Shown: positions 43,645-44,082 of the stretch, one piece after another
Numbering within the stretch: the stretch's first letter is position 1
Layout of the letters: the number at the start of each line of letters is the position of its first letter
Assembly (NCBI GenBank): GCA_044892525.1
Contig: CM097885.1
Location: 186,001-250,000 of the forward strand
Source of the DNA: Schmidtea polychroa
Taxonomy: Eukaryota
Length of the DNA stretch: 64,000 bases
Reading direction: 5' to 3'
The notes under the pieces: generated by a model
Database searches by the model: none
Seen by the model: the letters and a program-made list of their open reading frames with translations, nothing else
What the model was told of the DNA's origin: nothing
Program-made: the position numbers and the translations under genes

Positions 43645-44082
43645 ATGTTAGCAAATATAAATTATCGAGGAAATTTTGATGTATCGAATATGAGGTTCCC
43701 ACCAGGGAAACCCCAGCAAATTATCGATAGAAGTGGGAAATATCCGATAATATTTTTCAAGACTGGTAAATGCCGAATCATGGGATGTAAGAAACCTTTG
43801 GATATTAATAAATTACAATATCGAATAAATAATATTACAATCCAATCAATTACCGTTACTATGGATATGGGACATAGTATCAATCTATATAACATGTCGA
43901 AAAAATGTGATTGTATGTTTGAACCGGAATTGTTTCCGGCACTAAGACTATTAAAATATAACCCTATATGTGTCAACGTGTTTGCTAGTGGAAAGGTTGT
44001 CATGTTGGGGTTGAGAAATTTGGAGTATAGAGAATTTGTTGACAATGTTCGAAATGAGATAATTTCATTGGTCGATTTCTAA
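43645..44082 (+). CDS. TATA-box-binding protein (TBP)-like protein
   Basis: Two TBP-type repeats: IFFKTGKCRIMG and FEPELFPAL...VFASGKVVMLG (compare YEPELFPGL and IFVSGKVVLTG). Confidence 0.85.
   Translation: MLANINYRGNFDVSNMRFPPGKPQQIIDRSGKYPIIFFKTGKCRIMGCKKPLDINKLQYRINNITIQSITVTMDMGHSINLYNMSKKCDCMFEPELFPALRLLKYNPICVNVFASGKVVMLGLRNLEYREFVDNVRNEIISLVDF

Follow-up and report, generated by a model that had tools for sequence, protein, structure and literature searches.

The late genes of herpesviruses are served by mimics of the TATA-binding protein (TBP), namely BcRF1, ORF24 and UL87, which adopt the TBP fold, act at a non-canonical TATA-like late box and employ host RNA polymerase II (Pol II). 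Cellular TBP holds TFIIB by means of its EPELF stirrup, and the TBP paralogue TRF2 (TBPL1), in which both repeats are full and the TATA-contacting phenylalanines are missing, directs Pol II to promoters without a TATA box. Gene control in Polinton/Maverick elements and adintoviruses is essentially unknown, though these elements fill large parts of some animal genomes. Here we describe a gene of a Polinton/adintovirus-like element in Schmidtea polychroa which encodes a 145-residue protein of predicted TBP fold, called sTBP in what follows; it lies in a stretch of 64,000 nucleotides (assembly GCA_044892525.1, contig CM097885.1, positions 186,001 to 250,000), referred to as the window. A first-pass annotation, made from the letters of the window, had proposed this protein to be either an element-specific initiation factor for late genes or a decoy for host TBP partners. 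The data presented below suggest that sTBP is a conserved, shortened TBP, and they identify an ATAAAC box upstream of the virion genes in the same group of elements. To the reading that sTBP is an early-expressed, element-specific TBP which would direct host Pol II to these boxes we assign a probability of roughly 0.5, DNA binding, box specificity, TFIIB contact and timing being what we infer.

The predicted fold of sTBP and its gene family

The sTBP open reading frame (ORF) is intact and opens with ATG, as annotated (Table 1). Its sequence places it in the TBP family (PF00352) above the gathering score, with two matching stretches (56.2 bits at a cut-off of 22.9; E 3.1e-15), the better of which covers residues 64-125. 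TBPs accounted for 35 of the 37 matches listed in a phmmer search of the PDB (best 5e-10, residues ~55-133 aligned), and a profile of the sTBP family reached E values down to 1.7e-20 against PDB TBPs, with a HMMER alignment extending only over residues ~55-146; when the same profile was compared with a host TBP exon by hhalign, only the second repeat of sTBP was aligned.

An AlphaFold2 (AF2) model, built on an alignment of 56 family members, had a pLDDT of 96.5 and a pTM of 0.85. In a Foldseek search of the PDB its top 44 matches were all TBPs (E ~1e-8, TMq 0.67-0.78), the next match having an E value of 0.03, and VIA-align superposed the model on 38 TBP entries with Z values of 11.1-13.3, root-mean-square deviations (rmsd) of 2.3-2.8 Å and 139-145 of the 145 residues aligned, the best non-TBP fold reaching a Z of 6.6. 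Residues 1-145 covered residues 66-240 of yeast TBP (Z 13.1, rmsd 2.4 Å, 145 aligned). The entire protein is therefore predicted to be a TBP saddle about 30 residues shorter than the cellular core; the first-pass proposal, which stood or fell with a saddle fold, survives on this point. Assignment of secondary structure to the model by DSSP gave the full S1-H1-S2-S3-S4-S5-H2 pattern for residues 62-142 and four strands (E2-10, E25-28, E35-38 and E42-48) with no helix of four or more residues for residues 1-55, in agreement with the annotated complete second and shortened first repeat. In the model, lobe 1 retains the sheet on the DNA side, but both helices, which form the regulatory upper surface, are missing.

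Measured against the canonical features of TBP, the pattern S1-H1-S2-S3-S4-S5-H2, expected in each repeat, is complete in lobe 2 alone, and of the two pairs of intercalating phenylalanines three positions (F38, F97 and F113) are invariant in the family, the fourth (I26) being variable; we take these four to correspond to F116, F190, F207 and F99 of yeast TBP, respectively, and the retained N4 to yeast N69. The acidic C-terminal stirrup is present. When aligned with solved TBPs, E93-P94-E95-L96-F97 matches their EPELF residue for residue; within the family E95 and F97 do not vary, at least 90% conservation applies to E93 and P94, and the conservation table has its most conserved stretch here. 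The contact with TFIIB may be retained. On the DNA-facing side, R44, M46, C109 and N111 are invariant and S68 and R101 are at least 90% conserved; they presumably stand in the place of V122, T124, V203, L205, N159 and I194 of yeast TBP, of which positions 194, 203 and 205 are reportedly those altered in the classical altered-specificity mutant. Because these DNA-facing residues are invariant family-specific substitutions and not decayed positions, a specific DNA target is suggested. The saddle seems conserved but re-tooled, which would fit a changed DNA target.

These surfaces also bear on the second proposal of the first-pass annotation, that of a decoy. Spelled out, sTBP would be a competitor that titrates TFIIB or blocks host TATA boxes and thus damps host or antiviral transcription, having kept the stirrup and part of the DNA saddle but no surfaces for TFIIA, NC2, Mot1 or TAFs. 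Conserved TFIIB-type stirrup residues, the disappearance of both lobe-1 helices and the lack of an extra activation domain in a protein of this size are all compatible with such a role. However, the invariant DNA face speaks for a specific target, an 8-bp box is conserved before the virion genes of the element itself, and the synteny with the virion block has been kept over deep divergence, for which a decoy would have no need. We regard a decoy as distinctly improbable, and an initiation factor best fits the combination of conserved stirrup and re-tooled, invariant DNA face. Paired with a host TFIIB paralogue that has no introns (residues 100-300), sTBP scored 0.00 in a complex prediction, which speaks neither for nor against contact; the canonical host TFIIB core is intron-split. 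A single-exon host cyclin core (L114) resembles Brf1 in its motifs.

With regard to copy number, 150 sTBP copies drawn from 4167 first-look candidates in the 781-Mb genome of S. polychroa were scored, and all 150 are full length and stop-free (49 at 100% and 101 at 99% identity); diverged versions (L112 and L113) occur in other Polinton lineages of the same genome. A large protein collection contained 108 relatives at E<=1e-3 among 112 candidates (37-97% identity, 96-232 aa, PF00352 in all), and a library clustered at 50% gave 742 matches at E<=1e-3, 111 of them at E<=1e-10, while in IMG/VR the sTBP profile retrieved one weak locus (25% identity) and the MCP found no match. From a scan of metagenome contigs the best 80 of 172 relatives were used as locus set: in 39 of them sTBP lies beside homologues of the ATPase, core, integrase, penton, 110-aa protein, MCP, protease or polymerase; short contigs with a median of 1870 nt make up the remaining 41. 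The linkage of sTBP to Polinton genes thus recurs across diverged elements. Among 51 coding sequences, the ratio of non-synonymous to synonymous substitution rates (dN/dS) ranged from 0.11 to 0.54 with a median of 0.30 (76 pairs with 0.1<dS<1.5), which is the signature of a gene under purifying selection; 20 sampled genomic copies, with no amino-acid changes and 0-5 nucleotide changes, had been taken as best protein matches and, being a biased sample, were unused as selection evidence.

A quick, unrooted maximum-likelihood tree of 60 rows, from which the intron-split host TBP loci (L102-L104) were left out, placed 45 short proteins on one side of a branch with an SH-aLRT of 100 and 12 two-repeat TBPs together with three intronless host paralogues on the other, so that the family stands apart from these two-repeat TBPs and host paralogues. 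Among the outcomes that would overturn it, the first-pass annotation had named a recent degenerate fragment of host TBP found in this copy alone, and a recently captured, decaying fragment without a function of its own might indeed show a shortened first repeat that looks like a truncation. On the other side are the compact fold predicted with high confidence, the 150 intact copies, the 108 relatives reaching down to 37% identity, the median dN/dS of 0.30 and the SH-aLRT of 100, by which this explanation is refuted; its probability is close to nil. Taken together, the sequences indicate that sTBP is a real, selected, lineage-wide gene of one Polinton/adintovirus-like lineage. Its nearest two-repeat relatives are unusually small full TBPs of 167-183 aa (among P0241, P0271, P0277 and P0246), and P0246 (219 aa) consists of one reduced unit followed by two full units; these proteins may mark intermediate stages of reduction.

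The annotated arrangement around the gene was confirmed for the window, where exactly 99 bp separate sTBP from the oppositely oriented ATPase and the ORFs behind the ATPase follow closely spaced on the minus strand. As a family trait, however, divergence from the virion block does not hold: in 24 of the 27 loci with both genes sTBP precedes the ATPase and shares its strand (gaps of -9 to 1517 nt, and of -9 to +96 nt in 10 of the 24), the two genes diverge in 2 (L031 and L067), and in 1 sTBP is found at the far end behind the protease. A position behind the protease on the same strand was seen in nine loci. That most relatives have sTBP next to the packaging ATPase, with the short distances just given in 10 of the 24 loci, and that its usual neighbour on the other side, orf136, encodes a probable single-stranded DNA-binding protein (SSB), could be explained if sTBP were an architectural DNA bender, a clamp by its fold, which marks the packaging signal or terminal repeat for the ATPase or bends the origin. 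A pure clamp would nevertheless not need the TFIIB-contact stirrup, the most conserved stretch of the protein, and the box of the virion genes is not enriched at sTBP (8/68 starts against 5.4 expected); no repeated candidate site came to light in the terminal repeats, although no search was aimed at one. We find this explanation hardly likely.

Promoter boxes of the element and the role proposed for sTBP

The hexamer ATAAAC was recognised by reading the sequences upstream of the ATPase genes, every one of which contains it. Counts were made on de-duplicated sets, up to 130 nt upstream of the first ATG, with dinucleotide shuffles as control. The hexamer was present at 83 of 96 virion-gene starts (shuffle mean 9.7, sd 2.9, maximum 17 in 200) and at 11 of 88 sTBP and orf136 starts (shuffle mean 6.9). 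Broken down by gene, it occurred at 26/26 ATPase genes (shuffle mean 2.2, maximum 8), 10/12 core, 13/17 integrase, 13/15 penton, 7/7 110-aa protein, 11/11 MCP and 3/8 protease genes, besides the sTBP count already given, 3/20 orf136 (2.3 expected) and 1/6 polymerase genes. It ranks far ahead of all other hexamers, and the next ones, TAAACA and TATAAA, overlap it. Over 93 starts its occurrences pile up between -100 and -20 (14, 14, 17, 29 and 9 per 20-nt bin, about 2 elsewhere), whereas the reverse complement occurs 4 times in total, which makes the box strand-specific, and the controls ATAAAT, ATAAAA and ATAAAG have no such positional peak. In 24 of 26 loci the box starts 31-49 nt before the conserved ATPase ATG, and in the other 2 at about 70 nt. 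Alignment of 82 sites delimits exactly eight positions, [T/C]ATAAAC[A/G], with T at 59% or C at 35% in the first and A at 81% or G at 15% in the last, unconstrained flanks and pyrimidine-purine steps at both ends; eight base pairs with a kink step at each end are the footprint and kink geometry of the TBP-DNA complex. Where the box falls within the preceding coding sequence its nucleotides are kept while the encoded residue varies, as at the C-terminus of the integrase, where GAT, CAT or TAT precedes AAACA.

Because its spacing from the ATG is about that of the ordinary TATA box before sTBP, we take the box for a variant of the TATA box and not for a site of the enhancer type. Two other identities were rejected, namely that of a splice branch site or acceptor, as the window sequence from the box to the ATPase ATG contains no AG, and that of a poly(A) signal, as the box is present without an upstream gene in the window, L031 and L067. 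In practical terms it could serve as a simple marker for annotating virion genes.

The promoter of sTBP is of another kind. In 28 of 68 upstream regions, the window included among those with an ordinary TATA box (Table 1), TATA[AT]A is found at -60 to -15, mostly at -35 to -40; base seven of these 28 cases is A in 12, T in 10, G in 5 and C once, and in 9 of them the TATA box is in turn preceded by a CCAAT or ATTGG box. In the window, orf136 has its own GATTGGTTGATAG and TATAAAAA, and promoters composed of a CCAAT-type box and TATAAA[AT] precede orf136, an ORF for a 165-aa membrane-type protein and the weak Bcl-2-like ORF opposite to it. There are, accordingly, two promoter classes, the ATAAAC box for virion genes versus an ordinary TATA box that tends to accompany sTBP and SSB-like genes.

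The idea of an element-specific late-gene factor, put forward in the first-pass annotation, gains indirect support from this pattern, because the TATA-like box is specific to virion genes and absent upstream of sTBP; of the remainder of that interpretation, the saddle fold and the non-decayed family gene have stood, and divergence as a family trait has not. No RNA polymerase gene was seen in the element, which presumably therefore depends on host Pol II. On this basis a two-step programme may be sketched, which we hold tentatively, at a little under even odds: host TBP would switch on an early set that includes sTBP, and sTBP would then open the capsid and packaging genes through a private box, TFIIB and host Pol II. 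In the first step, sTBP would be expressed early from a host-type promoter, with a TATA box and, in part of the family, a CCAAT box before it, where host CCAAT-box factors would assist host TBP; the same set would comprise the SSB-like replication gene and perhaps the weak Bcl-2-like ORF. Subsequently, sTBP would bind [T/C]ATAAAC[A/G] at about TATA-box spacing before nearly every virion gene, and its retained stirrup would recruit TFIIB and with it host Pol II, with no need of TFIID or of the regulators that work through the upper surface of TBP. For an initiation-factor role of sTBP as such, the chances appear about evenly balanced; the specific link between sTBP and the ATAAAC box we consider plausible, at rather less than an even chance.

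Several points weigh against this proposal. Canonical TATA boxes occur in the element and could be served by host TBP. Virion genes are not alone in having the box: the one at 37740 lies before an ATG at 37664 that opens a multi-exon unit leading towards the putative polymerase, and another at 45366 precedes a plus-strand ORF. With at least one non-virion unit behind such a box, "late-specific" over-simplifies. If the box is TATA-like, its position at about -32 from the ATG implies 5' leaders of a few nucleotides. The fourth intercalating phenylalanine is not kept (variable I26), and the first lobe of sTBP might not bend DNA in the way TBP does. Moreover, all loci were found through sTBP, so that the sample is one of sTBP-bearing lineages. 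Finally, ATAAACA is at the same time a perfect Forkhead core site (RYAAAYA), and a host protein may read the box.

This last point leads to an explanation in which sTBP is a general initiation factor of the element, ATAAAC is read by a host Forkhead-family factor or by host TBP tolerating a weak TATA, and the two observations are unrelated. The Forkhead consensus, the 81% of A at position eight and the canonical TATA boxes elsewhere in the element agree with it, but enhancer-type sites are not usually strand-specific and placed at a TATA-like distance, cellular TBP disfavours the C that is invariant at position 7, and the lineages in which the box is invariant are also those in which the DNA-facing residues of sTBP do not vary. 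We judge it unlikely, though it deserves to be kept in mind. If instead sTBP is the reader of the ATAAAC box, it should prefer TATAAACA and CATAAACG over TATAAAAG, with C at position 7 of the box where host TBP would prefer A or T. It would then be smaller than any functional TBP known and a natural case of altered specificity, with a promoter code of its own, it would provide the element with a switch between silent integration and virion production, and it would constitute a natural experiment on how much of TBP can be removed with function kept.

The element, its other genes and its surroundings

The coordinates of the element and of the features discussed are collected in Table 1. None of the 14 sequencing runs retrieved is recorded as RNA. 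Contigs of X1, X2, X4 and X7 contain the stretch 42350-46000; they yielded no splice joint and no information on start or strand, and have no bearing on expression.

Table 1. Positions of the element, its genes and its promoter boxes in the window.
Feature	Position	Strand	Basis or remark
Polinton/adintovirus-like element, approximate extent	29972..47457		227-nt inverted repeats, 98% complementary; window sequence only
sTBP gene, 145-aa protein of predicted TBP fold	43645..44082	+	ORF, Pfam, PDB phmmer, model
Packaging ATPase (Pox_A32/FtsK-type), first virion-block gene	42919..43545	-	ORF, Pfam, relatives
Divergent ATPase-sTBP intergenic region, 99 bp	43546..43644		both promoter types; window sequence
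Rest of virion block: 177-aa core-like protein, integrase, "penton", 110-aa protein, "MCP", adenain-type protease	38152..42900	-	
ORFs behind the ATPase	42367-42900, 41583-42305, 40150-41217, 39825-40157, 38564-39787, 38152-38619	-	
Putative polymerase	32260-34689	-	DTDS motif in translation; long homologues in related loci
orf136, probable OB-fold ssDNA-binding protein	44860..45270	+	usual sTBP neighbour; model, synteny
Ordinary TATA box, TATATATAAAG	43609..43619	+	TATAAAGA core starts 32 nt before sTBP ATG
Box TATAAACA	43571..43578	-	ATAAAC core 32 nt before ATPase ATG
ATAAAC box	42927..42932	-	32 nt before ATG of 177-aa core gene
ATAAAC box	42365..42370	-	65 nt before integrase ATG
ATAAAC box	41231..41236	-	19 nt before "penton" ATG, inside integrase coding sequence
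ATAAAC box	40252..40257	-	100 nt before ATG of 110-aa protein, inside penton coding sequence
ATAAAC box	39823..39828	-	41 nt before "MCP" ATG, overlapping stop codon of preceding gene
ATAAAC box TTTATAAACATTG	37735..37740	-	76 nt before ATG 37664, behind two CCAAT-type boxes

The gene labels given at first pass are of unequal standing. In Pfam, Pox_A32 supports that of the ATPase (30.5 bits, cut-off 22.8) and Peptidase_C5 that of the protease (26.9 bits, cut-off 21.3), the integrase remains below its threshold (rve, 27.5 bits, cut-off 32.6), and the names "penton" and "MCP" derive from conserved synteny with relatives, the former ORF having no Pfam match and the latter a single irrelevant one (GP40, E 0.032). 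The putative polymerase ORF likewise has no polymerase match in Pfam. In the window copy, the integrase ORF contains a run of 45 residues that are nearly all isoleucine (one asparagine), encoded by an expanded (ATT)n tract within the catalytic core. A single in-frame stop interrupts the ORF, and after it the same frame continues to 41217 with a chromodomain-like C-terminus; this copy of the element is probably not autonomous.

On the other side of sTBP, a homologue of orf136 is present in 20 of the 80 loci. Its model (pLDDT 90.4) resembles ASFV CP312R (Z 7.3), a DUF2815 phage protein (7.2), the SSB of phage Enc34 (7.0) and T7 gp2.5 (6.9), and Foldseek agrees weakly with an SSB (E 0.05); orf136 is probably an SSB by its predicted structure, the Z values lying in a grey zone and the assignment being a lead. 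In several relatives the orf136 homologue has AG right before the ATG and resembles the final exon of a gene with introns. Directly 3' of sTBP lies a small plus-strand gene (44157-44400) with an apparent 49-nt GT-AG intron (44209-44257), followed by a cysteine-rich ORF of 43 codons (44440-44571). Towards the ends of the element, a C3HC4 RING ORF (30418-30744, minus strand) resembles the C-terminus of IAP (E 5.7e-10) and a minus-strand ORF (46075-46386) is weakly Bcl-2-like (E 0.0087, below the cut-off), which suggests anti-apoptosis accessory genes at both ends.

Further short motifs were noted in the element. A CCAAT-type box, GATTGGTTGA[T/G]AG, stands before a TATA-type box at 44792-44804 (+), 46441-46453 (+) and 37815-37827 (-), the copy at 46441 lying in a bidirectional promoter between the weak Bcl-2-like ORF (-) and the ORF of the 165-aa membrane-type protein (+). 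With up to two mismatches, GATTGGTTGATAG has 3 matches against 1.72 expected, a count that is not significant (28 of 100 shuffles reach 3), and all three are inside the element. Octamer-like ATGCAAAT pairs follow the poly(A) signals of two plus-strand genes (44749-44767 and 45331-45349); the 7 matches of this motif in the window against 8.4 expected amount to no enrichment.

Outside the element, four copies of a 293-nt segment, 99% identical and in both orientations, flank it (26351-26643, 28684-28976, 49529-49821 and 51612-51904). One copy overlaps an HMG-box ORF (49214-49792), and insertion of the element into an array of such genes is conceivable. Elsewhere in the host genome, a canonical intron-containing TBP is accompanied by at least five further loci for two-repeat TBP paralogues, three of them intronless (L102-L108). 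In addition, at least 13 intronless TFIIB-like ORFs of 301-310 aa, with zinc ribbon and cyclin repeat, are clustered at C3 ~38.2-39.1 Mb and C1 ~23.8-24.2 Mb (L123 2275-3180), in one case as three copies about 8 kb apart, and lie outside the Polinton; they may represent a lineage-specific expansion of a general transcription factor.

Comparison with known TBP-like factors

A TBP homologue in polinton-related viruses has been noted before. In Starrett et al. 2021 (PMC8502044), the legend of a map of midsize linear dsDNA (MELD) viruses, from non-animal datasets, carries the label "TBP", the preprint counts TBP among "homologs of host proteins", and one map of the supplement has "Adintoc3" next to FtsK, the terms "TBP" and "TATA" being absent from the part of the supplement covered. 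In the literature on polintons, mavericks or adintoviruses in connection with TBP, TATA or late promoters, this legend label was the only trace found, and neither the truncated TBP architecture nor the family-wide synteny nor the ATAAAC box was found described, although the figures of that paper and database records may say more.

Cellular TBP is the closest relative in structure. The saddle likeness extends over all 145 residues of the sTBP model (Z ~13) at 22-27% identity, and sTBP retains the EPELF stirrup and three of four intercalating phenylalanines. It differs in being about 30 residues shorter, in a first lobe that has neither H1 nor H2 and one strand fewer, in carrying invariant or at least 90% conserved R44, N111, C109, S68 and R101 where TBP has hydrophobic residues or asparagine, and in being encoded by a mobile element. 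TRF2/TBPL1 invites comparison as a TBP paralogue that steers Pol II to non-TATA promoters, but its two repeats are full, and the host TRF2-like ORF (L105) groups with the two-repeat TBPs and not with sTBP (SH-aLRT 100). The TBP-like proteins of giant viruses and asfarviruses, such as B263R, share the two-lobed saddle (BFVD matches at E 3e-8 to 1e-4), yet their identity to sTBP, 8-20%, is lower than that of cellular TBPs, and those viruses encode their own RNA polymerase whereas none was seen in the Polinton element.

The herpesvirus mimics resemble sTBP in that both are TBP folds of a virus or virus-like element, with sTBP proposed here as the reader of a TATA-like virion-gene box. The parallel drawn in the first-pass annotation is useful as a mechanism only; structurally, sTBP is far nearer to cellular TBPs, its match to BcRF1 being weak (E 1.8e-2, TMq 0.42). 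The matched BcRF1 has 577 aa, whereas sTBP is all saddle without an extra domain, and the box of the herpesviruses is TATT and not ATAAAC. According to the abstract of PMC6541308, the herpesvirus proteins bind Pol II directly, within a six-member complex. If the role proposed here for sTBP is correct, it would be the second independent TBP mimic of DNA viruses that re-aims host Pol II, after that of the beta- and gamma-herpesviruses. In conclusion, viral homologues of TBP were already known, and what the present locus adds to them is the minimal architecture, the synteny and the ATAAAC box of the virion genes.

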